Below are positions 1 through 56,762 of a stretch of 64,000 nucleotides of DNA, piece after piece; within the stretch, counting starts at the first letter, position 1, and each line of letters opens with the position of its first letter. This DNA comes from a virus (taxonomy: Duplodnaviria > Caudoviricetes). The DNA is taken from positions 128,464 through 192,463 of IMG/VR virus record IMGVR_UViG_3300033463_006479; one strand, written 5' to 3'. The notes under the pieces were generated by a model. The model was not told the origin of the DNA. It was given only the letters and a program-made list of their open reading frames with translations, and searched no databases. The position numbers and the translations under genes are program-made.

Positions 1-45
1 GAAGGTTTTTGAGACCTTTGCGTCTACCAGTTCCGCCACTCGACC
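1..45 (-). tRNA. trnL: tRNA-Leu(CAA), truncated by window edge
   Basis: Anticodon arm AAGGT-CTCAAAA-ACCTT, D arm and 5' acceptor GGTCGAG on minus strand. Confidence 0.85.
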
Positions 46-120
46 AAAAAACCAACAGCGGTTATTCATCATTGATGGATTTGTATCCCTACCTGCTTTC
101 TACAAAGTGCAGGACGAGGC

Positions 121-318
121 TCATTCGCCGCAGCCCCTCGTTTTGGCAATATGCTGGTTCGTTTCATTTCGCCGTTGAATTTCATCAACAAGTTCAAGAT
201 ATTCTTCAGCTGATGGTGATGTGTTGTGAAGATGCTTGTACTTTGAAAGTTTTTCATCAAGTTCTTCACGGCTCATATTTTCAAGTTTTTGTTTAAGGAT
301 TTCCGTTGTTTTATCCAT
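121..318 (-). CDS. small hypothetical protein (MDKTTEILKQ..., 65 aa)
   Basis: ATG at 318 after AT-rich leader, between tRNAs; helical charged composition. Confidence 0.55.
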   Translation of the reverse strand: MDKTTEILKQKLENMSREELDEKLSKYKHLHNTSPSAEEYLELVDEIQRRNETNQHIAKTRGCGE

Positions 319-348
319 ATATGTTATGTTTTTGTTTTCTGATATGTG

Positions 349-433
349 TGGCTTGGGCGGGACTCGAACCCGCACGCCCGCAATGGGCAACAGATTTTAA
401 GTCTGTCGTGTCTACCAATTCCACCACCAAGCC
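349..433 (-). tRNA. trnL: tRNA-Leu(TAA)
   Basis: Cloverleaf, loop CTTAAAA, long variable arm, GTTCGAG T-loop. Confidence 0.95.
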
Positions 434-444
434 AGACAATCAAG

Positions 445-528
445 TCGGCGAGGCGGGGGTCGAACCCGCACGCCCTTTCGGGCACTTGCTCCTAAAACAA
501 GCACGTCTGCCAATTCCGCCACTCACCG
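445..528 (-). tRNA. trnL: tRNA-Leu(TAG)
   Basis: Loop TTTAGGA, long variable arm, acceptor CGGTGAG/CTCGCCG. Confidence 0.9.
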
Positions 529-538
529 CAATATAATG

Positions 539-612
539 TCGATAAGGTGGGATTCGAACCCACAATAACACGAATCTGAATCGTGTGCGTCTGCCAGTTG
601 CGCCACTCATCG
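539..612 (-). tRNA. trnL: tRNA-Leu(CAG), short variable loop
   Basis: Loop TTCAGAT in CACGA/TCGTG stem; only about 4 nt of variable region. Confidence 0.8.
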
Positions 613-633
613 TTTGATATTCATATTCGTTTG

Positions 634-717
634 TGGTCGAGGCGGGATTTGAACCCGCATACCCTTTCGGGCAACAGTCCCTCAAACTGCCGTGTCTGCC
701 AATTCCACCACTCGACC
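634..717 (-). tRNA. trnL: tRNA-Leu(GAG)
   Basis: Loop TTGAGGG, long variable arm. Confidence 0.92.
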
Positions 718-885
718 ATTTTGTCAGTTCTTCCATCGGACGATTATACTGACAACCCAATCCACCGATTTTCGTACACTTTCCAAGTATGTCGGCAACT
801 TCCAGCCGCTCACACGGACTGGTTACGGTACGTGACCGTGAGAATGTGCGGATAATAACACACTTTCTTCCTTGCCAGGTCGGAG

Positions 886-957
886 AGCAGGTGATGGGAA
901 TCGAACCCACATTTCCAGCTTGGAAGGCTGAAGCACTAACCGTTGTGCTACACCTGC
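886..957 (-). tRNA. trnG: tRNA-Gly(TCC)
   Basis: Loop CTTCCAA, U73 discriminator. Confidence 0.95.
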
Positions 958-1175
958 ATAAAGAAAGATGGCTGGTTTGTCGTTATGCCAGCAAAGCACG
1001 CTTCCGCCATACTTCAAACGGGGTTTCACACCTCGTTACATCTTTTTAGCCACCGAGCGTTTGACCGATTTCGCCATCGCCATACCAATATAGTATGCAC
1101 GAGCAGGACTTGAACCTGCATTCATCGCAAACCACTGCGACCGTCCGAGTTGAACGGAACTGATTCGGTGTTCTG

Positions 1176-1247
1176 TAGCGGAGGACGGAATCGAACCGCC
1201 GACCTCAAGGTTATGAGCCTTACGAGCTACCTCTGCTCCACTCCGCA
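1176..1247 (-). tRNA. trnM: tRNA-Met(CAT), initiator-like
   Basis: Loop CTCATAA; GGAGCAG..GGTAGCTCG D arm and 1:72 mismatch typical of fMet. Confidence 0.9.
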
Positions 1248-1420
1248 CTATTAAAAACTGGCGGCGGCGTTGTGGCTTATACGTAAATCACCACACCTTT
1301 GATTTCAGATTTTAGGCCAGTTCGGATTTTCGTGTTTATATCAAAAACAAGAAATGCGAAACAGACTTCACATCATCCTATAACCATTAAGTCAAAAGAA
1401 CAACGTTTGACACCAGTTTG

Positions 1421-1496
1421 TTGAACCGATTGGATTCGAACCAACGCAGCACAAAGTTAATTGTGTCGTGCTACCGAAATGTTACACCACGGTTCA
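1421..1496 (-). tRNA. atypical tRNA, 6-nt anticodon loop (TTAACT), identity undetermined
   Basis: Acceptor TGAACCG/CGGTTCA, D and T arms present; anticodon loop non-canonical. Confidence 0.6.
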
Positions 1497-1524
1497 TCCG
1501 TTTGTATGGAAATGAAAAAAATTG

Positions 1525-1640
1525 ATTGGCAGGCAGGAGTCGAACCCACACATCGGTCTTGGACAAGATTAAATACTGCTGATAATTTCTTTGGCCAAGA
1601 AACATTTTCTTACCGTGCTCTACCTTTAAGCTACTGCCAA
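1525..1640 (-). ncRNA. tRNA scaffold with ~44-nt insertion in anticodon arm (hairpin + ATCAGCAG)
   Basis: Acceptor TTGGCAG/CTGCCAA, D arm, T arm; CGGT/ACCG stem encloses TTTCTTG-GCC-AAAGAAA-TTATCAGCAG. Confidence 0.75.
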
Positions 1641-1744
1641 ATGTCCGTTTTCGTTTTGTCCTCCTTGCAAATAATGAGCTCCTCATCCAAGGCTGGTTGT
1701 TGCACTATGTCGAAATACGGTAAAGAACACTACAACCTTTCACG

Positions 1745-1829
1745 TGGGGGAGGAGGGATTCGAACCCCCTGTGTTTCTATGTAACGGATTTACAGTCCGC
1801 CGCCCTTCCACCATCAGAGCAGCTCCCCC
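1745..1829 (-). tRNA. trnY: tRNA-Tyr(GTA)
   Basis: Loop CTGTAAA, long variable arm. Confidence 0.95.
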
Positions 1830-1840
1830 ATTTACGCCAA

Positions 1841-2344
1841 CTATTTGCTGGCGATTTCTTTTACTGCATTTGCGATAACACCATTGTTCGCATTAGGATA
1901 TTTAACCTTCACTCTTGCGATAATATCTTTGGTATATCGTTGCAGTTGTTTAGTGTCAAACGTTTCACCATTGTTGTTTTTTTCAGAAACAAGTATATCA
2001 ACTTGCTTTTCGGTTTCATTGCGAACTTCCTCAACGCTCGGCTCTTTCGGCAAGAGTTTTTCAAGTTCAGAAGCCTCAAATTCGTTCACCTTTCTGTTTT
2101 CAACGGCTATTTTGTTGTCATCACCAGCCTTGGCAAACTCCTGCGCAGCCGTGCGGCAACGTTTCAGCATAGAACGGAGAATTTCAGTTTCCTTTTCGTC
2201 ATTAGGAAGTTTTGTTCCGTTATGCACGGCGTTCACCATTTCGGTCTTGACACCTTTCCAGAAATTCGTTTTTAATTTCACGGCGCAGTCTTTTTCTTCA
2301 AACATAGCGTCCGCAATGTGTTTGTCAAGCGTTTCAAAAATCAT
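1841..2344 (-). CDS. GatB/YqeY domain protein
   Basis: 167 aa helical protein with YqeY-like pattern (IADAM...LRSMLKR..AAQEF...E...LEKLLPKEPS.EEV). Confidence 0.75.
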   Translation of the reverse strand: MIFETLDKHIADAMFEEKDCAVKLKTNFWKGVKTEMVNAVHNGTKLPNDEKETEILRSMLKRCRTAAQEFAKAGDDNKIAVENRKVNEFEASELEKLLPKEPSVEEVRNETEKQVDILVSEKNNNGETFDTKQLQRYTKDIIARVKVKYPNANNGVIANAVKEIASK

Positions 2345-2371
2345 AACTTTGTGTTTTTATTGTTGTTTTTG

Positions 2372-2444
<73 letters not shown>

Positions 2445-2606
2445 ATTCAGATAAAGGACATTTGAATATTTTAACCAATAAACTATACAGCCTTGTTAGA
2501 CCATAACACGGACTCGAACCGCTCGGTTGCTTTGTCGTGCACAACTCCGCAACCAATTTCTTCCAAACCACACGATATTTGCAACTATCACGTGTTGTCT
2601 TTATCT

Positions 2607-2683
2607 TGGTGGACACTGGTGGGACTTGAACCCACGACATCCTGCTTGCAAGGCAGGCGTTCTTCCAACTGAACTACAGGCCC
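2607..2683 (-). tRNA. trnA: tRNA-Ala(TGC), CCA encoded
   Basis: Loop CTTGCAA, G3:U70. Confidence 0.92.
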
Positions 2684-2689
2684 AAAAGT

Positions 2690-2975
2690 GCAGCATACCG
2701 AAGTTTTTGCAATGTGCATCGGCCTCTATCGCTGCTGCGGCGAAAAAGCCTCTTTAGTTATTCGGTGAGGCTTGATTTCCGTTCACGCTCGTTTTGCTGC
2801 GGAAGTTTACTCGCATCGTGGAATTGTCACCACGCTCTCCCGCTTTGTGGCGGGAATGTCACTTGACACTTATACGCCTCAACTTTCCAATGCCGTCCGT
2901 TTTCGAAAATTATAATTTCGGTTTCGGCATATCAGCACAAGTCAGCGATGCTTGAACACCAGTCTGCAAGCACTG
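2690..2975 (-). ncRNA. structured ncRNA with RNase P-like or group II intron-like motifs
   Basis: Multiple hairpins; GGAAAGTTGAGGC, GTGGTGACAATTCCAC, GAGTAAACTTCCGCAGCAA, GCAAAAACTTCGGTAT; no ORF. Confidence 0.4.
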
Positions 2976-2980
2976 TGTTG

Positions 2981-3052
2981 TTGTCCCGACCAGAATCGAA
3001 CTGATATTACTTGTGCCAAAAACAAGTGTAATAGCCATTATACCACAGGACA
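2981..3052 (-). tRNA. trnQ: tRNA-Gln(TTG)
   Basis: Loop TTTTGGC in CTTGT/ACAAG stem. Confidence 0.88.
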
Positions 3053-3183
3053 TTACAAGCAACCGTTTTTATCTCTCGGATAGGTTGCTCACCTGCACCG
3101 CTTCCTTTTTTATGTTTCCGTGGCACTGCGGTTTTGACACGGCGAAACGAGGTTTTACACAAAAATTGTTAAAGTCAAAGAAA

Positions 3184-3250
3184 ACAAGGTGCATATGGAA
3201 ATAACAAATTTAGGTGTTGTTTGGAATAATGTTGCTGTACGCACCTTTTG
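3184..3250 (-). ncRNA. stem-TACAGCAA small RNA, copy 1
   Basis: AAGGTGC-GTACAGCAA...GCACCTT-G. Confidence 0.75.
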
Positions 3251-3288
3251 AACTATAAATTAACTATGAATGAAAAATGCCATAAAAA

Positions 3289-3355
3289 ACAAGACACACA
3301 AAAAAGATTCAAAGTGACAGTTTGATTTTTTTATGAATTGCTGTATGTGTCTTTG
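3289..3355 (-). ncRNA. stem-TACAGCAA small RNA, copy 2, with Asp(GTC)-like anticodon stem-loop
   Basis: AAGACAC-ATACAGCAA...TCAAA-CTGTCAC-TTTGA...GTGTCTT-G. Confidence 0.8.
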
Positions 3356-3457
3356 CGTATCTGGCAGGAGTCGAACCTGCGCCCTTGAGGATATGCCTCA
3401 CGTTCTTACCGACATCTCCACGTTGGAATCCCACCAACGCTTCACCACTACAGATAC
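3356..3457 (-). ncRNA. tRNA-like RNA with expanded D region and aberrant anticodon loop
   Basis: Acceptor GTATCTG/CAGATAC, T arm GCAGG-TTCGACT-CCTGC; extra hairpin CGTTGG/CCAACG in D region. Confidence 0.65.
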
Positions 3458-3537
3458 TGACAGAGGATAGGTTTGTTAAAACTATATGTGATTTGCAACT
3501 CAACATAAAGCTGTAACAATTAACATCATTCTGTTTG

Positions 3538-3611
3538 CGGTGTGTACGGGACTTAAACCCGTGACCTCCGCCGTGACAGGGCGGCATTCTAATCAACTGA
3601 ACTAACACACC
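3538..3611 (-). tRNA. trnD: tRNA-Asp(GTC)
   Basis: Loop CTGTCAC, G73. Confidence 0.92.
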
Positions 3612-3617
3612 ATTTTG

Positions 3618-3742
3618 TCGGGGGTGGTGGATTCGAACCACCATAACGGCTACCCAAAAGCAAAATTGAAATAAAATTGCTGTCCAATTCTCATACAAGA
3701 ATCGTCAAAAAAATACGTGTCCTACCATTAGACGAACCCCCG
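3618..3742 (-). tRNA. trnP: tRNA-Pro(TGG) interrupted by a 54-nt insertion (3662-3715) in the 5' anticodon stem
   Basis: Removing 3662-3715 restores CGGCT-TTTGGGT-AGCCG in a 71-nt cloverleaf with C1:G72, A73; insert holds a hairpin + ACAGCAA. Confidence 0.75.
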
Positions 3743-3750
3743 TTAAAAAA

Positions 3751-3821
3751 ACAAGATACTAAAAATGTAGCGATTTCAAATTACGAGTTTGATGCTTTTG
3801 TTTTTGCTGTATGTATCTTTG
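3751..3821 (-). ncRNA. stem-TACAGCAA small RNA, copy 3, with Thr(CGT)-like anticodon stem-loop
   Basis: AAGATAC-ATACAGCAA...AGCA-TCAAA-CTCGTAA-TTTGA...GTATCTT-G. Confidence 0.8.
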
Positions 3822-3850
3822 GTTTTCATAATGATATATACTGACTGTTG

Positions 3851-4050
3851 CAGACGGCAAAGGAATCGAACCTTTGAATCTTCACCATATCAAGAGCCTA
3901 CTTTGTCGGTTAGTTGACTGACAACCGTGATGATAACTATAAACCGATTGTTTCGGAACTTATACCCGTTCATATTCCAGAACGGTGACGTGTCGCCACG
4001 CCCCACATCTTGATACGGAATTGACGCATTTCCGTTTATGCTATCCGTCT
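3851..4050 (-). ncRNA. tRNA scaffold carrying a ~130-nt structured insert in place of the anticodon arm
   Basis: Acceptor AGACGG/CCGTCT, D stem GCAT/ATGC, T arm AAAGG-TTCGATT-CCTTT; TATCAAGA/TCTTGATA helix encloses the insert. Confidence 0.7.
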
Positions 4051-4184
4051 ATTAAAAAGTGCAGGAAACCATTGTTTGCTGGGATTGGTCTGACTATGAG
4101 TAAAGTAATGATGGAAATGACCAGTCGCCACAAATGTTTGTGTTTATTACTGATGTCTAAAACTGCACTTATATTTTAATGATG

Positions 4185-4595
4185 TTATTTCTTTTTCCAA
4201 TGTGATTTAATCCCTCCGCATTTTCTACTGCAACAAGGATTTGGGTGCGTTGATAAATTACGTTTATCAAAAATGAATTTCTCACCACAAACTGGACAAA
4301 CACATTCAATAAAAGTTTTTGATTGTTTCTTTTTTGAATTATTTTGTCTTTTTGATATAACTTGTAAGTTCTCTATCCTATCATCCATTCTATCACCATT
4401 TATGTGGTCAACTTCATCATCATTTGCCACATCACAACTATAATATGAAGTATAAAGATATTTTGCATAAGACATTGAATGTTTTTCGCCATTTGCATAT
4501 TTCATAGTTGCAACTCTTCTGGGTTCTTTGTTTATATTTACATAAACACTGGTTACACCTTTATTTTTATAGTATTCACTAACATCAATTTTCAT
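4185..4595 (-). CDS. HNH homing endonuclease with C-terminal Zn finger
   Basis: VDHINGDRMDDRIENLQ HNH_3 motif; CPVCG...CCSRKC. Confidence 0.9.
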   Translation of the reverse strand: MKIDVSEYYKNKGVTSVYVNINKEPRRVATMKYANGEKHSMSYAKYLYTSYYSCDVANDDEVDHINGDRMDDRIENLQVISKRQNNSKKKQSKTFIECVCPVCGEKFIFDKRNLSTHPNPCCSRKCGGIKSHWKKK

Positions 4596-4614
4596 AACAA
4601 GTTTAATTTGCTTG

Positions 4615-4688
4615 TAGCGATGGCGGGACTTGAACCCGCAACCTCCTGCTTATAAGGCAGGTCCTCTAACCATTAAGGATACACCGCT
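4615..4688 (-). tRNA. trnI: tRNA-Ile(TAT)
   Basis: Loop CTTATAA in CCTGC/GCAGG stem, A73. Confidence 0.88.
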
Positions 4689-4733
4689 ATCTTGTCGTTC
4701 TATAAATTATGTATAAACGAACAATCAAGGAAA

Positions 4734-4810
4734 ACAAGACACTTTGAAATAGCGTATTCATATTAAAAGTATGGTGCTTGTTCATTTAAGGATTGCTGTA
4801 AGTGTCTTTG
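4734..4810 (-). ncRNA. stem-TACAGCAA small RNA, copy 4, with Lys(TTT)-like anticodon stem-loop
   Basis: AAGACAC-TTACAGCAA...AGCAC-CATA-CTTTTAA-TATG...GTGTCTT-G. Confidence 0.8.
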
Positions 4811-4883
4811 TCCACCCGCAGGGATTCGAACCCCAATCTTGAGTTCCGTAGACTCACGTTCTAATCCGTTGAACTACGGGTGG
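4811..4883 (-). tRNA. trnR: tRNA-Arg(ACG)
   Basis: Loop CTACGGA. Confidence 0.93.
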
Positions 4884-4888
4884 TTTTG

Positions 4889-4963
4889 CGGGGGAGGTGA
4901 GACTCGAACTCACAACCATCGGCTTAACAGGCCGCCGCTCTGACCGATTGAAGCTACTCCCCC
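4889..4963 (-). tRNA. trnN: tRNA-Asn(GTT)
   Basis: Loop CTGTTAA, G73. Confidence 0.93.
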
Positions 4964-4969
4964 GTTTTG

Positions 4970-5041
4970 TAGTCCCAGCGGGAATCGAACCTGCATTTAG
5001 AGTTTAGGAAACTCTCGTTCTGTCCGTTGAACTATAGGACT
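4970..5041 (-). tRNA. trnR: tRNA-Arg(CCT)
   Basis: Loop TTCCTAA. Confidence 0.92.
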
Positions 5042-5046
5042 GGATT

Positions 5047-5129
5047 ACAAGGTGCTGGGTAACGAATAACAAAAATGAAACAGAATTTTAATTGTAAATG
5101 CTATGATATTTTTGCTGTATGCACCTTTG
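5047..5129 (-). ncRNA. stem-TACAGCAA small RNA, copy 5
   Basis: AAGGTGC-ATACAGCAA...GCACCTT-G. Confidence 0.75.
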
Positions 5130-5203
5130 TGGATACTGGTGGGACTTGAACCCACGACATCCTGCTTGCAGGGCAGGCGTTCTCCCAACTGAACTACAGA
5201 CCC
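5130..5203 (-). tRNA. trnA: tRNA-Ala(TGC), second near-identical copy with C33
   Basis: Near duplicate of 2607-2683; loop CCTGCAA. Confidence 0.85.
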
Positions 5204-5410
5204 AGAAATACAAGGTTTATGTTCTGACCAGCGTCTTCACCGCCAAGCCAATTTCATCTGTTTACGTCCTCGCAAACCTTGCAAAACAAAGGAGTGTGGC
5301 GCAGTTCACCATCAGCCACATTTAGGGCTTTTTTCTTATGGATAGAATTAAAGCGTAAAAACCTTTCCATATACCGAGCAGAAGTGAAGATTCTGGCGGG
5401 TAATGAAATG

Positions 5411-5483
5411 TCGTCCCAACGGGATTCGAACCCGTGACTCCACCGTGAAAGGGTGGCGACTTAAACCACTTGTCGATAGGACG
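5411..5483 (-). tRNA. trnE: tRNA-Glu(TTC)
   Basis: Loop CTTTCAC. Confidence 0.93.
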
Positions 5484-5848
5484 GTGCGTATATGCCATTC
5501 CATTCGGACACTATCGCATTATAGCAAACGTGCGGTAATGTAGAACGTGGATGCGATTGTGTCGCCGCAGCAGTTTTTACATTTTCTTATTGCTTCTCGC
5601 TGAACTGTGGCCAATCCAAACCAAACGGCATATAAGGAAACCGCAGGTAAGTATAGTTGTCTTGCATCGGCGGGCGGTTTCGTATGACCGACACAAATGT
5701 CTCTTGGACGTTATGTTCGCCGCACATTGCGGCATTGCTTGACTGACGGGCGGTTTGACACCTACCGTTCCGACAGCTGCAACCAGTATATATCATTTCA
5801 ACTGGATTTAGAAAACTATGATTTACAAAGGTTTAAAGACTTCCTTAA

Positions 5849-6603
5849 CCTACCACACTATGTTACCATAGCCAAATAATATCACCAAAACAGTCTGAAA
5901 CAAATCAGTTTTCATACATTTGTTACACACTTTGTATCAGGTGTGCAGCCGTGACAGCTCTGTTTTATTATCTGTTGTGGTCTGGAGCACATTATAGCCA
6001 TATCGGAAATTCTGCGCAGTTATAATAACATTTTAAATTTAATGAATTGTTGAGGGTCATACCCGCTCTACCGTATAGAATAATCAAGTAAATAGACCAT
6101 TCTTTCTTGTTTCATCCTGCCACTACTTTTTAAGTCTGTTGTCAGACAGTCATCCATAGTTGGGCAGTCCGCAAGCGTAAATTTGGTGTTACGGACACCT
6201 ATTATTAAAAATTCCGACTGTAGGCTCGTCCTCTATGCTCTCTACACATTTATGATAATGTTTTTCAATCAAAGAATTGCCATCATCTGATTGAAAACAA
6301 GGCAGCAAAAGGGGATTCTACGCAGGCAATTTATTCTCATAGCCCGATTCTCTTTTGCCGCACATTATCATTTTAGCACGGTATTGTCCCCGCACGTTAT
6401 TGGTTAGTGCTGCCGCAGACATCACAAACAAATTCGCTTATGACGGCTGCTGGCGGTATGATGATAAAATGTGTACGGTGTTGCGATTTGGCCATAAGCC
6501 AGAACGGAACTGCACAACACGTTATCGTCAATGGGGATGTCCACCGTTTTAGGGACGTTCTACTACGGGTTGTTCACGCCGTAGCACTCCAAATATAAAT
6601 TCA
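5849..6603 (-). ncRNA. ORF-less group I intron
   Basis: P1 CGCTTTGAAT/ATTTGGAGTG with U.G; P2 CTACGG/CCGTAG; P3 CGTCC/GGACG; P AACGGTGGACATCCC; Q GACAATACCGTGCTAA; R AAATGTGTAGAGAGCAT; S ATAATGTGCTCC; P8 AGCC..TCGGAA/TTCCGA..GGCT; P9 ACCAC...GTGGT then terminal G. Splice sites approximate. Confidence 0.85.
6071..6201 (-). ncRNA. orphan TnpB omegaRNA-like module (IS607/RAGATH-18-type) in intron P8 loop
   Basis: Hairpin GGTGT-CCGTA-ACACC; TACG-CTTG-CGGA-CTGCC...GGCAG-GATGAAA-CAAG; terminal hairpin + ATACGG complementary to loop CCGTA. Confidence 0.7.
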
Positions 6604-6667
6604 AAGCGGGTTGGTGAGCATCTTGCAGAAATTCTGGAAGATGCCGCACACTCCCGTCTGATACGTT

Positions 6668-6788
6668 TCGTATGGAGAAACGGGTTTCTCCTTCTTGTTT
6701 CCACCTGCCGACACTTCTTGGATTCATTTCTGAACGCAATATGTAATCTGGCAGTCCGCAAGCGTTACTTCGGCGGTACGTCCGCCTA
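6668..6788 (-). ncRNA. orphan TnpB omegaRNA-like module, upstream copy
   Basis: Hairpin GGCGG-ACGTA-CCGCC; AACG-CTTG-CGGA-CTGCC...GGCAG-GTGGAAA-CAAG; hairpin GGAGAAA/TTTCTCC + ATACG. Confidence 0.65.
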
Positions 6789-6861
6789 CCATCCGATTGT
6801 CGCATCTGTTTTGGCAACGCCTCCACAGAGCATCGGAATTTCCTTATAGTGCCTTTCGCCA

Positions 6862-7380
6862 ATATGTCAAAGAACTTTGTTCTTATTCCAATATAATAAA
6901 AAATTCGAGAAATCGTGAAATGTTTTTGTCAAATGACCGCCTCTCGGTTTTCATCATATTTTCAAAGAACGCTGCGTATTTAATATAATAAAAATTTTCG
7001 GAATATGCAAAATGTTTTTGCAAAAACTTCAGTTTTCATCATATCAAAGAGCCGCATTTTAGTTTCGCAGTTGTTATCAAAAACAACGCTGCAAAAATAC
7101 AACTTTTTTTAATGCTGTCAACAATTTCGTAAAAAAGTTTTCAACAAAGTTATCAACAGCCGTTGTGTTTCATATCTTCAAAGAACGTTACTCAATCAAT
7201 ATAATAAAAATTTTGAAAAATGGAGAAAACATTGCAACATTTTTCGTTTATCATATCAAAGAGCGTTTTGCCGTTTTTTAGTGTCGGCGCATCACTGTCA
7301 TAATGACTTTGCAAAGATACAACCTTTTCTAATAGTGTCAATACATTTTTCAATAAACTTATCAACAGAGTTATCAACAA
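6862..7380 (-). promoter_or_regulatory. five tandem promoters, each followed by a boxA antiterminator
   Basis: TTGACA..TAnnTTTGC at 7341-7311 and 7121-7091; TTTTTATTATATT at 7198, 6982, 6890; G(T/C)TCTTTGA at ~7264, 7186, 7052, 6970, 6875. Confidence 0.8.
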
Positions 7381-7436
7381 TCTTATTTAATTCAACATTC
7401 ACAATATCAGCAATTTCAATTATCAAAACAAACAGC

Positions 7437-7471
7437 AAAAAAATTGGCGGCATATTTTTGATATACCGCCA
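7437..7471 (-). terminator. intrinsic terminator
   Basis: TTGGCGG/CCGCCAA hairpin followed by T-run on minus strand. Confidence 0.7.
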
Positions 7472-7600
7472 ACCGAATATTTTTTGTACGATATATCGCA
7501 TCACGAACCATATTCGTCATTATAGTTCGCCCAAAAGAGTTGTGATTTACTTGGTCGGATATCGTATAGCTTTGTCATAGTTACTATCGTTTTTTCTTTT

Positions 7601-7684
7601 TTTATTTATACGAGCGATTTTTCGCTTTTTTCTGTTTTTATTTATACGAGCGATTTTTCGCTTTTTTCTGTTTTTATTTATACG
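7601..7684 (-). repeat. 36-bp tandem repeat, each unit with a TATAAATA late promoter
   Basis: Units start at 7601, 7637, 7673; related copy at ~7905-7926. Confidence 0.85.
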
Positions 7685-7960
7685 GATTGATGTCGGTTTA
7701 TTGATATTCTAATTAGTTTTGGCTGATAACAGACTCACCTGCAATTTGCTCAACTTCCCTTTGCGTATAGGTTTTGCCGTTACACTCATAAAGTTTCTGA
7801 CCATTGTTATATCCGTTGAAATGGTAGGTTATTTCATTTATAATTATGTCGTTTCCGTCTTTTACTACATTTGTGTCACTCATATACATCCTATGTTTTT
7901 CGTCTTTTTCTGTTTTTATTTATACGAACAGCTTTTTTATTTTTTTACAGATGAAATATG

Positions 7961-8809
7961 TTAAAGTGAAAGTATTGTTTTTCTGACAGCATCACGGACT
8001 TTTCGTTTTTCGTTTGTATTCAATTCATTGAATTTGAACACAACTTGTTCTTCACTATATCCATTGGTGTCTGGCTCTGAATATCCGATAAGATACATAT
8101 TGCCATAGTAATCACTTTCTTCGTGAGGATATATTTGGAACAATATGGAATCGTTCATTCCATCAAATTTACGAATATGCAAATCAGATTGCGATAGCCA
8201 TAAGTTATACATACCAGCCCCAGCGTCTTCAAGTTTTGACAGATTTTTTCTTGCAATATCGCACAAATCTTCAACATACAATTTGTTTTGGAATGAGGTA
8301 TCATTTGACAAATCAGACAATCTGTCTTTTGTTACTGGCTTTATGTTCAGTTTTTCATCAACTTTTGATATTGTGTTGATAACTGCAATGGCTGTTGGAA
8401 AATCGTCAATTATTTTGTCAAACTGGAACGGCAGTGAGTCTATCAGATTTTCTTCCAAGCCGATTATGTCACACGTGTTTATATATGGGCTTTTCACGCA
8501 TTTGACAAAGATATGCTTTGTTCTGTTTTTTTCCAATGAGTGAACATTGACAGAATAGCCGCTCTCCATCGCTTCTTTTATAGTGTCGGTAAGATGTTCA
8601 TACGAAAACACCTCAACAAAATCGTTCTCACCAAATGCGCCGATTGAACGCATAAACTGCGTTAATTGTGCGTATGACATATTTTCAAGTTTGGCACGAA
8701 GGACATTAATGTCTTTGGCTTCATTTGATATGCCTTGCATTCTGGTTTTCGTCATTGGCTTGACGTTCAGTTTTTCGGAAATATATTTGTTTGTGTTGAG
8801 TATTTTCAT
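7961..8809 (-). CDS. hypothetical virion internal protein with two EKLNxKPxTK motifs
   Basis: MKILNTNKYISEKLNVKPMTK and internal DEKLNIKPVTK. Confidence 0.75.
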   Translation of the reverse strand: MKILNTNKYISEKLNVKPMTKTRMQGISNEAKDINVLRAKLENMSYAQLTQFMRSIGAFGENDFVEVFSYEHLTDTIKEAMESGYSVNVHSLEKNRTKHIFVKCVKSPYINTCDIIGLEENLIDSLPFQFDKIIDDFPTAIAVINTISKVDEKLNIKPVTKDRLSDLSNDTSFQNKLYVEDLCDIARKNLSKLEDAGAGMYNLWLSQSDLHIRKFDGMNDSILFQIYPHEESDYYGNMYLIGYSEPDTNGYSEEQVVFKFNELNTNEKRKVRDAVRKTILSL

Positions 8810-8817
8810 ATTGTTGT

Positions 8818-10044
8818 TTAAATTCTTTTAGGTTGTTTTGATTTTTTTCTTGCGATTGGAGTTTTGCTGAATGCGTTTGCTGTATTGCAAATAACAGAAA
8901 TATCCCAGCCAGACAAATCACAATCAAATTGTGAACATCCGAAAAACATATCCTCTATTGTTTCAACACTGCTGACATCCCACAATGATATGTCACCATT
9001 GAAATCCGAATAGGCGAACATAGCATTCATATCCTTTACATTTCCGACATTCCAATTTGATATGTCGCCATTGAAAGATGAGCCATAGAACATTTTTGTC
9101 ATTTTTTCAACATTTCCAACATCCCATTTTGATATGTCATTATTAAATCTTGAAAGGTTGAACATCTGCTCCATATTTTCAACTCTGGAGACATTCCATT
9201 TGGAAATATCGCCATTGAACGTTGTCCTGCTGAACATATACGACATATACTTGACTTTTGACACATTCCACGCCGTAAGATTCTGGTTGAAATCAAGATT
9301 GTTATGAAACATTGATGTCATATTCTCAACATTGCCGACATTCCATTTGGAAATGTCTCCATTGAAATATCCGCTTTTTGAATTGCCGTTCTCGCAACAG
9401 AACATACTTGACATATTTTCCACCTTGCCGACATTCCATTTTGATATGTCCCCGTGAAATTTAGTGAATGCGAACATAAAACTCATATTCTCCACATTGC
9501 TTACATTCCATTTTGATATGTCCCCGTCAAATTCACATTCACAGAACATAGCACTCATATCCACAGCACTGGAAACATTCCATTTTGAAATATCGCCATT
9601 GAATATTGAATCGGCAAACGCCCTATTGAAATTGGTTACATTTGATACATCCCATTCTGATATGTTTCCGTTGAATTTTGAACTGTCAAAAATATACTGC
9701 ATATTCGTAACATTGGAAACATTCCATTTGGATATGTCGCCATTGAATTTCGTATTGTAGAAAAGCCAGCCCATATCCGTAACATTGGAAACATTCCATT
9801 TGGATATGTCAATGTTTTCAATATCCATTCCCCAAAACAATGCGTTCATATCAGTTATTTTTGAAACATCAATGTCATTCAAATCATAATTTGAACAGTC
9901 TATGTGTTCCTTTATGGCCGCAATAAGTTCATCTTTTGTTTTTGGATGATATTTGTATGGACGCAGTTCAGTAAGCCTTGCTTTTGAAACTGGCCTTATG
10001 TTTAATTTTTCTGAAATGTATTCCTCGGAATCAAGTATGTGCAT
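8818..10044 (-). CDS. BspA/DUF285 repeat protein with capsid-targeting-like leader
   Basis: Many F(N)GDISKWNVSNVxNM..MF repeats. Confidence 0.92.
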   Translation of the reverse strand: MHILDSEEYISEKLNIRPVSKARLTELRPYKYHPKTKDELIAAIKEHIDCSNYDLNDIDVSKITDMNALFWGMDIENIDISKWNVSNVTDMGWLFYNTKFNGDISKWNVSNVTNMQYIFDSSKFNGNISEWDVSNVTNFNRAFADSIFNGDISKWNVSSAVDMSAMFCECEFDGDISKWNVSNVENMSFMFAFTKFHGDISKWNVGKVENMSSMFCCENGNSKSGYFNGDISKWNVGNVENMTSMFHNNLDFNQNLTAWNVSKVKYMSYMFSRTTFNGDISKWNVSRVENMEQMFNLSRFNNDISKWDVGNVEKMTKMFYGSSFNGDISNWNVGNVKDMNAMFAYSDFNGDISLWDVSSVETIEDMFFGCSQFDCDLSGWDISVICNTANAFSKTPIARKKSKQPKRI

Positions 10045-28180: not shown

Positions 28181-29751
28181 TTTTGTTTTGAAGCATCTGT
28201 GAACAAATCAAACTTGATTGCTGGATATGATTCATAATCCTCAATACGTATATCTTCTGGCGTTATCTGGTCATAACGCAAAACCGTTTGAGGAAGAACA
28301 AGTTTGGCCGCACCGAACAAATGGGGGTTTCGTTCAAGCATTTCAAGAACGCCGTCCGTGTGGTTTTTGTAAATGTGTGCGTTTCCAAGAGAACCAGCAA
28401 GCATCTTCGGGCACATATTGACTGTCTTTGCTATGATTGACAGAAGTATGGCATAACTCAATATATTGAACGGAATACCCAATGCCATATCACAAGAACG
28501 CTGTATCCAACGCATACTCAAATAGTATTCTGGTATGTTGTATGTTTTCAGCACATACTCCATATTCATACCTTTTGTATCAAGACCTATTGTGTTGTAA
28601 TACAATTCAACTCTTTCGTCAAAAGGTATGGGTTCTGCATAGAACTCCATAGCATAATGACAAGGCGGCAATGCCATTTTATCCATAAAAGCAGGATTCC
28701 AAGCAGACACAACAAGCCGTCTATTGTTCGGGTCTGTTTTTAATTTTTCAACAACGGCATCCAACTGGTTCACACCAGAATGACCGAAGTCTGTCCATTG
28801 TGAGCCGTAGATTGGACCGACATCGCCAAAAGTATAATTCTCTCCATCAATGTCAATACTTGTTTCGTTTTTAACACCATCCAAAAAAGTATCAAAATCA
28901 ACTGGTTCGATATTCGCTGATTTGGCAATTTTCACATAATGGGCATACGCATCCTTATCCCATATATGAACATTTCTGTCAACCAGATATTTAATGTTCT
29001 TGCATCCGTTAAGAAACCAAACAAGTTCCACAACAACAGCATTTAAAGCCATTTTCTTTGTTGTGAGAACTGGCAGACCTTTGCGTAAATCAAAATGCAG
29101 ATGTGCATCAAATATACTGCGGGCAGTTCCTACCCTTGTGGGTGTATCAACACCATTTTCAAGAATATCACGCAGCAGGTTCAGATATTGTATGTCGCAA
29201 TGTGATTCGTGTCGTTTTCTGAACATTGTGAAAAACGTATGGTCATCGACATCTTCAATCATACGGACATCATATTTTTTCTGAAATCTTCCGCCATTTG
29301 TGGCATTGCCTATAGTGTACCAGAATTTTGGAAAATATGTGTCAAATTTTTCAATGCTGCAATTCTTGATGACACTGCAATAAATGGTATCGGCCAAGTC
29401 ATTGTCCATAACATATTTGTAAACCTGCGCCCCGCCAATATAATACACTTGTTTATAGCCCAACGTTTCAGCAATACTTTCAGCCTCATCAAACGATGAG
29501 GCATAAGCAAGCCAAGTTTTGTCAGAAGGCTGCGACACGCCATTGGTGTCGGCCTTTGAAGTAACCACTATATTCACTCTGTTTTTTAGCGGATGACCAA
29601 TGGATTCAAATGTGGTTCTACCCATAATGACAGCTTGCCCTTTTGTAAGACGGACAAACCTTCTCATATCGCTTTTGTTTTCCCAAGGCATTTTGCCGTT
29701 AAGTCCGATACCGCCATTCTGACTGACGGCAACAACAACATTTCTAATCAT
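28177..29751 (-). CDS. bifunctional dihydrofolate reductase-thymidylate synthase
   Basis: GIGLNGKMPW, VIMGRTTFESI, IGGAQVY; then GPIYGSQW, MALPPCH, QRSCD, IPFN, GNAHIY. Confidence 0.95.
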   Translation of the reverse strand: MIRNVVVAVSQNGGIGLNGKMPWENKSDMRRFVRLTKGQAVIMGRTTFESIGHPLKNRVNIVVTSKADTNGVSQPSDKTWLAYASSFDEAESIAETLGYKQVYYIGGAQVYKYVMDNDLADTIYCSVIKNCSIEKFDTYFPKFWYTIGNATNGGRFQKKYDVRMIEDVDDHTFFTMFRKRHESHCDIQYLNLLRDILENGVDTPTRVGTARSIFDAHLHFDLRKGLPVLTTKKMALNAVVVELVWFLNGCKNIKYLVDRNVHIWDKDAYAHYVKIAKSANIEPVDFDTFLDGVKNETSIDIDGENYTFGDVGPIYGSQWTDFGHSGVNQLDAVVEKLKTDPNNRRLVVSAWNPAFMDKMALPPCHYAMEFYAEPIPFDERVELYYNTIGLDTKGMNMEYVLKTYNIPEYYLSMRWIQRSCDMALGIPFNILSYAILLSIIAKTVNMCPKMLAGSLGNAHIYKNHTDGVLEMLERNPHLFGAAKLVLPQTVLRYDQITPEDIRIEDYESYPAIKFDLFTDASKQK

Positions 29752-30320
29752 TTCAAATTCTCCTTTAAATATTCATTAGCCTTTCTGAAAAGTTCCTTTG
29801 TCTTGGAAAGCGACATTCCCATAGTTTCGGAAATGCTTATGAAATCGGTTTTTCCGTTGTGTGTTTCCTTGAAACCATATTTCATATCAACAATGTCCCT
29901 GCTTTTTGAATCAAGACTTCCCACAAGACGTTTGTAATCCATAATGACTTCATTATAAATTGCATCATTGAACTGCACAAATTCCGTATCATCGCCATCA
30001 TCATAGGTAATGCCGACATAACTATGCGTGATATTATCGTATTTCTTGAAACCAGAATTAAGTCTATGATACGGGATATGAACGACATTACGCTGAAGGT
30101 TAATTTCGTTCTTTGCATATTCAGTCATAAGAGGTTTGCAGAAAACCCAGAAGTTAGGATTTTTTGCAGAATCGTATTTTTCCATACTTTTGACAACAGC
30201 AAGCGCACACACCTGCCGCACGTCATTTTGTGTTTCCTCGTTGAAACAGTTGAATTTGCAGAATATATAACTTACAATCCTGCTGAAATCCTTTGACTTG
30301 AGAAGTTCATTTATTTCCAT
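29748..30320 (-). CDS. sigma70-family RNA polymerase sigma factor-like protein
   Basis: Region 2-like (DVRQ..ALAVVKSMEKYD...F..F, VVHIP) and region 4 HTH (RDIVDMKYGF...ISETMGMS). Confidence 0.75.
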   Translation of the reverse strand: MEINELLKSKDFSRIVSYIFCKFNCFNEETQNDVRQVCALAVVKSMEKYDSAKNPNFWVFCKPLMTEYAKNEINLQRNVVHIPYHRLNSGFKKYDNITHSYVGITYDDGDDTEFVQFNDAIYNEVIMDYKRLVGSLDSKSRDIVDMKYGFKETHNGKTDFISISETMGMSLSKTKELFRKANEYLKENLK

Positions 30321-51069: not shown

Positions 51070-51148
51070 ATCATTTTTGTTTTTGTGCTGCAAAAATACA
51101 ATATTATTTCAAATTCGCAACACAAAAGATGAAAAAGTTATCAACAGC

Positions 51149-56432: not shown

Positions 56433-56692
56433 AAGTTTTATAATTTCTTTTAACTGATTATATTTATAATTGGTTTTTAAAATGTACCAAAAACGAAATG
56501 AATATCAAAGACATTTCAAAACCAACTGGAATCCAAACGAAAAATCGCCTTTAAAACCTTTAAAATCCTTTAAAAAATCGTTTTCTTCTTCATATAATTA
56601 TTGATTTTGTTTTTTTGAGATAATTGGTTGATAATGTGTGAAATATAAAAACAGTTTTTTCGAGAGGTCTTGTTTTTGGCATTTTTTGGGGT

Positions 56693-56762
56693 GTTGATAA
56701 CTTTGTTGATAACTTTTTGAATTTTTTTGTTGACAATATGAAAATAAGTTGTATTTTTGCAG
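56693..56762 (+). promoter_or_regulatory. Bacteroidetes sigma-type promoter with upstream TGTTGATAA pair
   Basis: TTGACA...AAGTTGTATTTTTGCAGCG, same core as the promoter at 7087-7105. Confidence 0.75.

Follow-up and report, generated by a model that had tools for sequence, protein, structure and literature searches.

The window analysed here, 64,000 nucleotides long, represents the final 64 kb of an IMG/VR record of 192,463 bp that was judged to be ~70% complete. It encodes a topoisomerase II large subunit together with many orphan proteins. The minus strand carries, at 6862–7380, a stack of five promoters, each followed by a GYTCTTTGA motif resembling the boxA element of bacterial rRNA (rrn) operons. 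Two of these promoters are of the Bacteroidota type (TTG-N19-TAnnTTTG), while the other three are copies of TTTTTATTATATT. A preliminary description had proposed five promoter and boxA units in tandem, and all ten elements were recovered at the positions first noted. Between the stack and the first tRNA gene lies an ORF-poor leader RNA of ~1.4 kb (5484–6866, minus strand), and 17 co-oriented tRNA genes follow (348–5483, minus strand), forming the first part of a longer array.

Elements of the leader stack and its operon

Directly upstream of the stack, a strong terminator-like hairpin of 14 pairs with a T-run was predicted at 7437–7474 on the minus strand. No other minus-strand terminator-like site was predicted in window positions 1–8000, including the 7.4 kb that follow. 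The predicted terminator insulates the leader against upstream transcription, closing the upstream unit. The same hairpin and T-run are found directly before the promoter stack of a relative with a complete 413-kb genome (L019, at about 1697–1735).

All the elements of the stack are located on the minus strand and are given here in the order of transcription. The first promoter, H1 (7311–7341; TTG-N19-TAtcTTTG, with TTGACA at 7336–7341 and TAtcTTTG at 7312–7319), is preceded by two TGTTGATAA(C/G) direct repeats 12 nt apart (7358–7379) and followed by boxA-1, GCTCTTTGA (7256–7264), 47 nt past its -7 box. P1, an exact match to the phage class motif TTTTTATTATATT (7198–7210), is followed after 11 nt by boxA-2, GTTCTTTGA (7178–7186). 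The second Bacteroidota-type promoter, H2 (7091–7121; TTG-N19-TAttTTTG, with TTGACA at 7116–7121 and TAttTTTG at 7092–7099), has TGTTGATAAC / TGTTGAAAAC repeats upstream (7137–7158). Its boxA-3, again GCTCTTTGA (7044–7052), is located 39 nt past the -7 box, with a hairpin before it. P2 (6982–6994) and P3 (6890–6902) are also exact matches to the phage class motif. The former is followed after 11 nt by boxA-4, GTTCTTTGA then AAATAT, which we call the leader-type extension (6962–6970), and the latter after 14 nt by boxA-5, GTTCTTTGA then CATATTGG, the spacer-type extension (6867–6875). This last copy runs directly into the conserved 5' end of the non-coding RNA (ncRNA) located downstream.

H1 and H2 had been described as host-type promoters. 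Their positions stand, but the type is the Bacteroidota -33/-7 arrangement (TTG-N19-TAnnTTTG) and not the -35/-10 arrangement of E. coli. The consensus of Bacteroidota sigma-A promoters is reportedly -33 TTTG / -7 TAnnTTTG, and both H1 and H2 conform to the sigma-A pattern (TTG, 19–21 nt, TAnnTTTG).

H1 with P1 and H2 with P2 are two copies of a duplicated 215-nt module. The copies are only 71% identical; therefore, the motifs were kept while the remainder drifted. Each promoter is copied together with its boxA, so that RNA begun at any of the five starts contains the last boxA at the least.

The motifs are also much denser here than expected. GYTCTTTGA occurs eight times in the window, against 1.44 expected from shuffled sequences, and five of the eight occurrences fall inside the ~400-nt stack. 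The whole 192-kb record contains 18 matches, including these five. At the density found outside the leader, ~0.014 matches would be expected per 410 nt on one strand, giving a Poisson probability of ~4e-12 for five or more. Similarly, TTTTTATTATATT with up to one mismatch was found 12 times in the window (six of them exact), compared to 0.97 expected. We also folded the 467-nt leader. The boxA copies had mean unpaired probabilities of 0.15–0.58, against 0.38 overall, and were thus not preferentially unpaired, although a thermodynamic fold is of limited value for an AU-rich RNA that would be bound during transcription.

Downstream of the stack, the longest frames on the transcribed strand of 5484–6866 comprise 99 and 70 aa, both with TTG starts. 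Rfam was searched with the gathering threshold and again with a permissive E-value, and no family was retrieved in this region except the flanking tRNA-Glu. Repeat blocks spaced 588 nt apart are present inside it. The complete tRNA array contains 30–31 tRNAs over 16 kb, extending to genome position 117925. An HNH endonuclease ORF (4185–4595) and a 167-aa ORF (1841–2344) are embedded in the part that lies within the window, and TnpB-like and glycosyltransferase genes are found further along. The operon had been taken for more than 7 kb of untranslated RNA. It is indeed largely untranslated, but it is not one plain 7-kb RNA, being made up of the ncRNA, 17 tRNAs and embedded ORFs. The transcript is, thus, a tRNA, small-RNA and putative intron operon with embedded ORFs.

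The region is represented by contigs in four RNA libraries from the rumen, belonging to four studies, and RNA depth is high over 5503–6671 in all four. A 755-nt back-joined circle (6602 to 5848) was detected in each of these libraries, which argues for RNA rather than DNA carry-over. The ncRNA was present in bovine and sheep gut metatranscriptomes. In the leader, contigs of three studies cover or approach boxA-3 (X1, 6574–7113; X2, 6669–7049; X3, 6574–7038), and one contig reaches 7297. Three boxA copies are fully covered by RNA contigs; therefore, a leader with at least three boxA copies is present in RNA. The contigs cannot place transcript starts, and their ends (7297, 7113, 7049 and 7038) match no single predicted start. 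Likewise, depth increases stepwise through the stack, but these values are per contig and cannot be used, and the lack of cover upstream of 7340 is not evidence of silence. Depth over the protein genes at 8008–9000 was approximately zero in three of the four runs, X2 showing depth in one bin (8676–8842).

Resemblance to the rrn boxA of Bacteroidota

To compare the phage motif with that of potential hosts, 120 Bacteroidota 16S loci were fetched by their 5' end, 103 of which were usable, and all 9-mers in the 500 nt upstream were counted. The commonest was GTTCTTTGA, present in 48 loci, or in 81 if one mismatch is allowed, and G[CT]TCTTTGA was found in 50 of the 103 leaders. The next commonest 9-mers upstream of the 16S genes were TAnnTTTGC words, which correspond to the -7 promoter box. 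In host leaders, GTTCTTTGA reached a density of 0.97 per kb, compared to 0.015 per kb per strand for non-rrn flanks. Host boxA lies 75–250 nt ahead of the 16S gene, often 36–47 nt past a -7 box and hairpin. The distance from -7 box to boxA is broadly spread among hosts, from 12 to 315 nt, and the 39 and 47 nt measured in the phage are compatible with it but not diagnostic. The word also occurs in 13 of 43 Bacteroidota 16S–23S spacers, mostly as GTTCTTTGACATATTGG.

The likeness runs past the nine nucleotides initially described. The 9-nt core holds, and beyond it a T at +14 is shared by all five phage copies and the host consensus, while G at +15 is present in four of the five, the H1 copy having A. 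The 17-mer at boxA-5, GTTCTTTGACATATTGG, is identical to the 16S–23S spacer boxA of several Bacteroidota, and boxA-4 reads GTTCTTTGAAAATAT, as in many host leaders. GTTCTTTGAAAATATTGAA was found in five host leaders (L139, L177, L209, L229 and L235), and the first 15 nt at boxA-2, GTTCTTTGAAGATAT, are those of the rrn leader of a Bacteroidaceae genome (L206). BoxA is followed by a conserved tail, ATATGATGAAAAC or CATATTGG, which is without structure and agrees with the host rrn flanking sequence.

A matrix built exclusively from host leaders was then used to scan both strands of the 192-kb record. Its four best hits were three copies of the stack (boxA-5, boxA-4 and boxA-2, in that order) and, in fourth place, a copy in the leader of a CRISPR array. 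When only the flanks were scored, four stack copies and the CRISPR copy were the top five of 18 matches, and boxA-1 scored +6.2 against the host rrn matrix. The phage motif, as read from these comparisons, equals the boxA of Bacteroidota rrn leaders and spacers. The comparison with host rrn boxA that had been proposed at the outset thus yielded an identical core, with leader-type and spacer-type extensions both represented in the phage. One further GYTCTTTGA word, inside a 127-aa ORF at genome position 117554, also scores well. Most of the other matches to this word in the record and in three relatives were discarded as boxA candidates, as they lie inside long ORFs and look like chance occurrences.

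Based on the promoter type and the form of boxA, the host phylum was assigned to Bacteroidota, and the source is, on sequence grounds, a giant phage of rumen Bacteroidota. A megablast search of 5400–7700 against 50,697 deposited phage genomes gave zero matches. A gene search of the ~70% complete record found no RNA polymerase (RNAP) beta-type gene. NusB was not found in the record either, which covers ~70% of the genome, while it was present in the Bacteroides thetaiotaomicron control genome. A Sigma70_r2 search of the record returned a sub-threshold match, and there is a weak sigma-like ORF at 29748–30320.

The flanks also bear on whether the motif might be a phage-specific device. In a nut site of the lambda type, boxA would depend for its function on a boxB hairpin and on an N-like protein of the phage, such proteins being small, disordered and diverse. 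Among phages, the lambdoid group is the classic example of boxA use (PMC12360218). However, no conserved hairpin follows the five copies, nor boxA in an alignment of nine phage-type units, the tail is host-like, and the layout at H1 and H2, with a hairpin, an A-rich tract and boxA, is that of host rrn leaders. We, therefore, regard a nut-type arrangement as highly improbable.

Distribution of boxA among promoters and phages

The promoter classes of the stack are also used elsewhere in the genome. Exact TTTTTATTATATT sites number 11 in the record and 39 in the complete 413-kb relative, compared to one for the reversed control, and they are co-oriented with start codons located 5–47 nt after them. 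The eight exact sites of the record that lie outside the stack precede an ATG by 5–25 nt, and none of the eight has a boxA. In the 413-kb relative, 30 sites were inspected. A boxA follows at +10 to +12 in five of them, each at the head of a non-coding RNA: four belong to the syntenic tRNA leader and one heads a 260-nt ncRNA ending in a terminator. The remaining 25 lack boxA; in 18 cases an ORF starting with ATG lies no more than 50 nt away. Fisher's test for the restriction of boxA gave p values between 6e-8 and 7e-5, the latter when the seven unclear sites are taken as contrary cases.

The host-type class, consisting of two TGTTGATAAC repeats plus TTG-N19-TAnnTTTGC (searched as TTG-N19-21-TAnnTTTGC), has about a dozen members genome-wide, and a paired repeat of the H1 type is found upstream of ~12 promoters of this class. 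Outside the stack, the strict matches with TGTTGATAAC repeats have ORFs at +19 to +42 and no boxA. A third close copy, which was aligned with H1 and H2, is located at genome positions 119166–119098 and drives a 148-aa ORF. The stop codon of this ORF is overlapped by GTTCTTTGA, and ~550 nt of non-coding RNA, tRNA-Cys and tRNA-Ile come after it. A similar arrangement is seen at the CRISPR array of the phage (27 repeats of 36 nt, with a 66-nt period), where GTTCTTTGACATATTG, the fourth hit of the matrix scan, is located after the stop codon of an 814-aa ORF and ~80 nt before the array. At the ends of these two ORFs, boxA, thus, occurs without a nearby promoter. As an exception in the opposite direction, an internal promoter of the tRNA array, before tRNA-Ser, has no boxA.

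Taken at face value, the predicted boxA is found in this phage and its 413-kb relative only where untranslated RNA begins, and never on promoters of the same two classes that serve protein genes. We consider this restriction to untranslated units the strongest functional argument available.

It also bears on the view that GYTCTTTGA acts on DNA or on the initiating complex, as an operator for a regulator of the phage or an initial-transcribed element of strong promoters, that merely resembles boxA. The nearly fixed position of the motif in the phage-type units, 9–14 nt past the promoter, would fit such an element. However, the motif follows two unrelated promoter types at distances of 9 to 47 nt, occurs at the two promoter-free ORF ends and is missing from the eight record promoters and the 25 sites of the relative mentioned above. 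Moreover, it is always on the transcribed strand, and its flanks match the host rrn leader and spacer forms beyond the core. A DNA element of this kind is, in our judgement, very unlikely.

Related phages retain the motif. The syntenic leader of the 413-kb relative contains four promoter and boxA units, the same ncRNA start and 23 tRNAs, and the P3 and boxA-5 unit is conserved there together with the next ~25 nt. In a 128-kb contig, two boxA copies lie ahead of tRNAs, and in a 334-kb contig one is placed 9 nt past a host-type -7 box, with tRNA-Tyr 20 nt downstream. When nine phage-type units were aligned, the only invariant runs were the promoter 13-mer and G-TCTTTG, although three isolated upstream columns were likewise invariant, and mean column identity was 59%. 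As far as these alignments indicate, related phages have preserved boxA, and the sequence around it has drifted.

The search was extended to IMG/VR. A loose pattern combining a 10-nt promoter core with boxA gave 116 matches, mostly redundant chance occurrences inside ORFs of abundant phages, and was set aside; the scan used required the 13-nt promoter and boxA. With this stricter pattern, the pair was found 20 nt before tRNA-Leu, tRNA-Arg and tRNA-Met in five unrelated contigs of different sample origin; in one further contig it precedes tRNA-Glu by 206 nt. One other phage family (L024, L078 and L341) is an exception, with promoter and boxA directly before the ATG of a 162-aa ORF.

These comparisons also inform the alternative that the stack is a sink for Nus factors, in which five boxA copies on an abundant transcript would soak up NusB–S10 and host rRNA synthesis would collapse, read-through being secondary. 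The presence of as many as five boxA copies on a transcript, together with the high RNA depth of the region, would suit a sink, and the extra copies would be needless for antitermination because the last one is on every transcript. Against this, a lone boxA heads the CRISPR array, the 260-nt ncRNA of the relative and tRNA groups elsewhere, which fits a function in cis. The number of boxA copies tracks the number of promoters, as expected from whole-module duplication, and one upstream boxA of the 413-kb relative has decayed to GTTCTTTGT. We consider a sink as the main role quite unlikely.

Proposed function and relation to known systems

Antitermination of the rRNA type is textbook biology in E. 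coli, where the complex is known as rrnTAC. The binding of boxA by NusB has been tested in B. subtilis only recently (PMC13753749). Nascent boxA recruits NusB–S10, which together with NusA, NusG and SuhB gives an elongation complex that resists Rho and pausing (PMC12360218, PMC13753749). A Rho factor exists in Bacteroides (PMC12360218). A long transcript free of ribosomes, such as that of the phage operon, is of the kind that Rho would cut, and the stack was, therefore, read as a set of antitermination modules. We consider it probable that the stack is the control region of a phage non-coding RNA operon and loads the host rrn antitermination complex. The core of the initial proposal, a host rrn-type boxA after each promoter serving a long untranslated operon, passed every test that could be made on sequence.

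In the proposed mechanism, the five modules, two of the Bacteroidota sigma-A type and three of the phage-wide type, would fire into one minus-strand transcript, each writing a host rrn boxA into the first 5–50 nt of the RNA. The nascent boxA would be bound by host NusB–S10, which, together with NusG, NusA and SuhB-like factors, would render the host RNA polymerase resistant to Rho and to pausing, a state that is otherwise kept for rRNA. The polymerase thus modified could traverse the ~1.4 kb of structured ncRNA, and then many kilobases of tRNAs and small RNAs, without protection by ribosomes. The presence of boxA after the second promoter class suggests that the host core polymerase may act there too, perhaps with a phage sigma factor. 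If TTTTTATTATATT were instead recognized by a polymerase of the phage, the Nus factors of the host might fail to act at these units.

The same complex might instead serve maturation. The motif would then be a mark for RNA processing or folding, either an RNase landing site or an entry point for the rrn complex as a chaperone, through which the intron, the ncRNA and the tRNAs mature while termination is unaffected. The rrn complexes are described as RNA-folding aids besides antiterminators (PMC12360218, citing Huang 2020), and the downstream RNA is highly structured and processed into a circle. Yet such a role is compatible with antitermination, as it requires the same factors, and the CRISPR array and short tRNA groups need little folding help. 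Moreover, no conserved sequence that could pair with boxA was noticed downstream. As the sole function of the motif, we regard processing as unlikely, and antitermination as the preferred reading.

Compared with the rrn system (boxA with NusB, NusE (S10), NusA, NusG and SuhB), the putative phage system shares the core, both extensions, the tandem promoters, the promoter-proximal position, the location on the transcribed strand and the long untranslated RNA. H1 and H2 even keep the order of the host rrn leader, in which the -7 box is followed by a hairpin, an A-rich tract and, at about +40 to +50, boxA. It differs in being phage-borne, in serving tRNAs, small RNAs and a putative intron-bearing ncRNA, and in having five modules of two promoter classes.

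A functional parallel is found at bacterial CRISPR arrays, the one published setting outside rRNA in which boxA is used for read-through, where a boxA upstream protects the long untranslated array from Rho (Stringer et al. 2020, eLife e58182, as cited in PMC7862264 and PMC13753749). The phage likewise has a leader boxA that would guard an untranslated array, and owns such a site before its 27-repeat array, but here the element is carried by a phage and is chiefly directed at an operon of tRNAs and ncRNA. As in the N/nut system of lambda, a phage boxA and host Nus factors would here give a termination-resistant polymerase. Lambda, however, needs N and boxB and acts on protein-coding operons, whereas the phage stack has host-like flanks and no conserved boxB-like hairpin. 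[quoted passage not shown] 2017, PMC5725501). It resembles the sites predicted here as a Nus-factor target outside rRNA with a consensus boxA, and the sole comparable case in our data is the boxA before the ATG in the other phage family mentioned above.

In the literature searched, we found no description of boxA antitermination in Bacteroidota and none of a boxA ahead of a phage tRNA operon. What is new at this locus is a predicted boxA of the rrn and CRISPR type that is carried by a phage, has multiplied along with its promoters and would serve an operon of tRNAs and ncRNA.

More broadly, and tentatively, since we would put this generalization at somewhat below even chances, large Bacteroidota phages may tag all their non-translated RNA with the host boxA. 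The tag would be placed at the 5' end or right after the last stop codon of tRNA operons, ncRNAs, CRISPR arrays and, in other phages, tmRNA-like genes, and never on protein genes with the same promoters, while the five-fold stack might also drain NusB–S10 from host rRNA synthesis.

The locus represents a natural experiment, in which the same promoters have a boxA where the RNA is untranslated and lack it where the RNA is translated. In practical terms, the promoter and boxA pairs are ready parts for long guide or tRNA arrays in Bacteroides or Prevotella, and the engineered use of boxA in Legionella provides a precedent (PMC7862264). The antitermination reading predicts that Rho limits the non-coding arrays of phages and that giant phages keep the host polymerase for these arrays. 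If the tagging of all non-translated RNA holds true, a word of 9–17 nt would locate non-coding transcription units in the genomes of uncultured phages of gut and rumen Bacteroidota, and these phages would depend on the host core polymerase and Nus factors, and face the threat of Rho, throughout infection.

Repeats and candidate factors at the phage promoters

Every Bacteroidota-type promoter in the phage is directly preceded on its 5' side by paired TGTTGATAAC repeats with a spacing of 12 nt, and about 12 such sites occur in the record, including those at window positions 7358-7379, 7137-7158, 56692-56713 and 51137-51146. These pairs are candidates for an activator binding site or an UP-like element.

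A different set of repeats lies upstream of the leader. Three 36-nt tandem repeats, each containing TATAAATAAAAAC, occupy positions 7590-7697 of the minus strand, with a fourth TATAAATAAAAAC repeat copy at 7913 (minus strand). Next comes a short conserved stretch, possibly holding an ORF of 25 codons, that closes at the terminator at 7474-7437 (minus strand). Four such 36-nt repeats are found at the equivalent place in the 413-kb relative (L019, 1400-1540). TATAAATAAAAAC is similar to the T4 late promoter word TATAAATA. The repeats may represent a third promoter class, serving a tiny gene.

A 190-aa ORF (window 29748-30320, minus strand) has weak similarity to sigma factors (PHROG 1740, E 6e-5; Pfam Sigma70_r2 under the cut-off) and is a candidate for the factor that recognises the TTTTTATTATATT promoters. 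A 276-aa protein encoded on the minus strand at 11112-11942 of L257, the piece of the same record that also contains the CRISPR array (genome about 83111-83941), combines an HTH at its N-terminus with an RNA polymerase alpha-subunit-like C-terminal domain (RNA_pol_A_CTD, E 5e-15). This protein may be a phage-encoded factor docking on promoters or polymerase.

The leader and the tRNA array

In one contig from the rumen RNA library X1 (depth 23), position 6876 is joined directly to 7437, so that the entire promoter stack is missing, and unknown letters are present at the join. The probable source of this contig is a related strain whose leader differs in content.

Within the array, an internal promoter, TTTTTATTATATA, is predicted 6 nt 5' of tRNA-Ser on the minus strand, outside the window (G000:C1:121163-121175, in coordinates of the whole phage record). 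It lacks a boxA, indicating that some array starts are untagged. An HNH endonuclease ORF (window 4185-4595, minus strand; Pfam HNH_3, E 6e-8) is located between array tRNA genes. Also outside the window, a non-coding RNA of ~350 nt (G000:C1:118280-118630, minus strand) lies 3' of the stop-codon boxA; it carries a terminal T-arm-like GGTTCGATTCC stem and received no call from ARAGORN or Rfam.

The CRISPR array and boxA in other contigs

Outside the window, the phage also has a CRISPR array (G000:C1:76042-77785; L257 4043-5786) in which a 36-nt repeat occurs 27 times with a period of 66 nt. Its leader contains GTTCTTTGACATATTG about 80 nt 5' of the first repeat, and the 814-aa ORF located upstream has no match in Pfam or PHROG.

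In four other IMG/VR contigs (L017, L038, L057 and L113), GTTCTTTGA is located 6-7 nt 5' of sequences resembling tmRNA 5' ends (GGGGNNG...GGAUUUGAC), suggesting that phage-borne tmRNA-like genes may also be headed by boxA. In three more (L024, L078 and L341), the promoter 13-mer and a boxA stand immediately 5' of the ATG of a 162-aa ORF (GTTCTTTGAtATG). This boxA, reminiscent of the suhB-type leader boxA, is an exception to the rule that the element marks untranslated RNA units and not protein genes under the same promoters.
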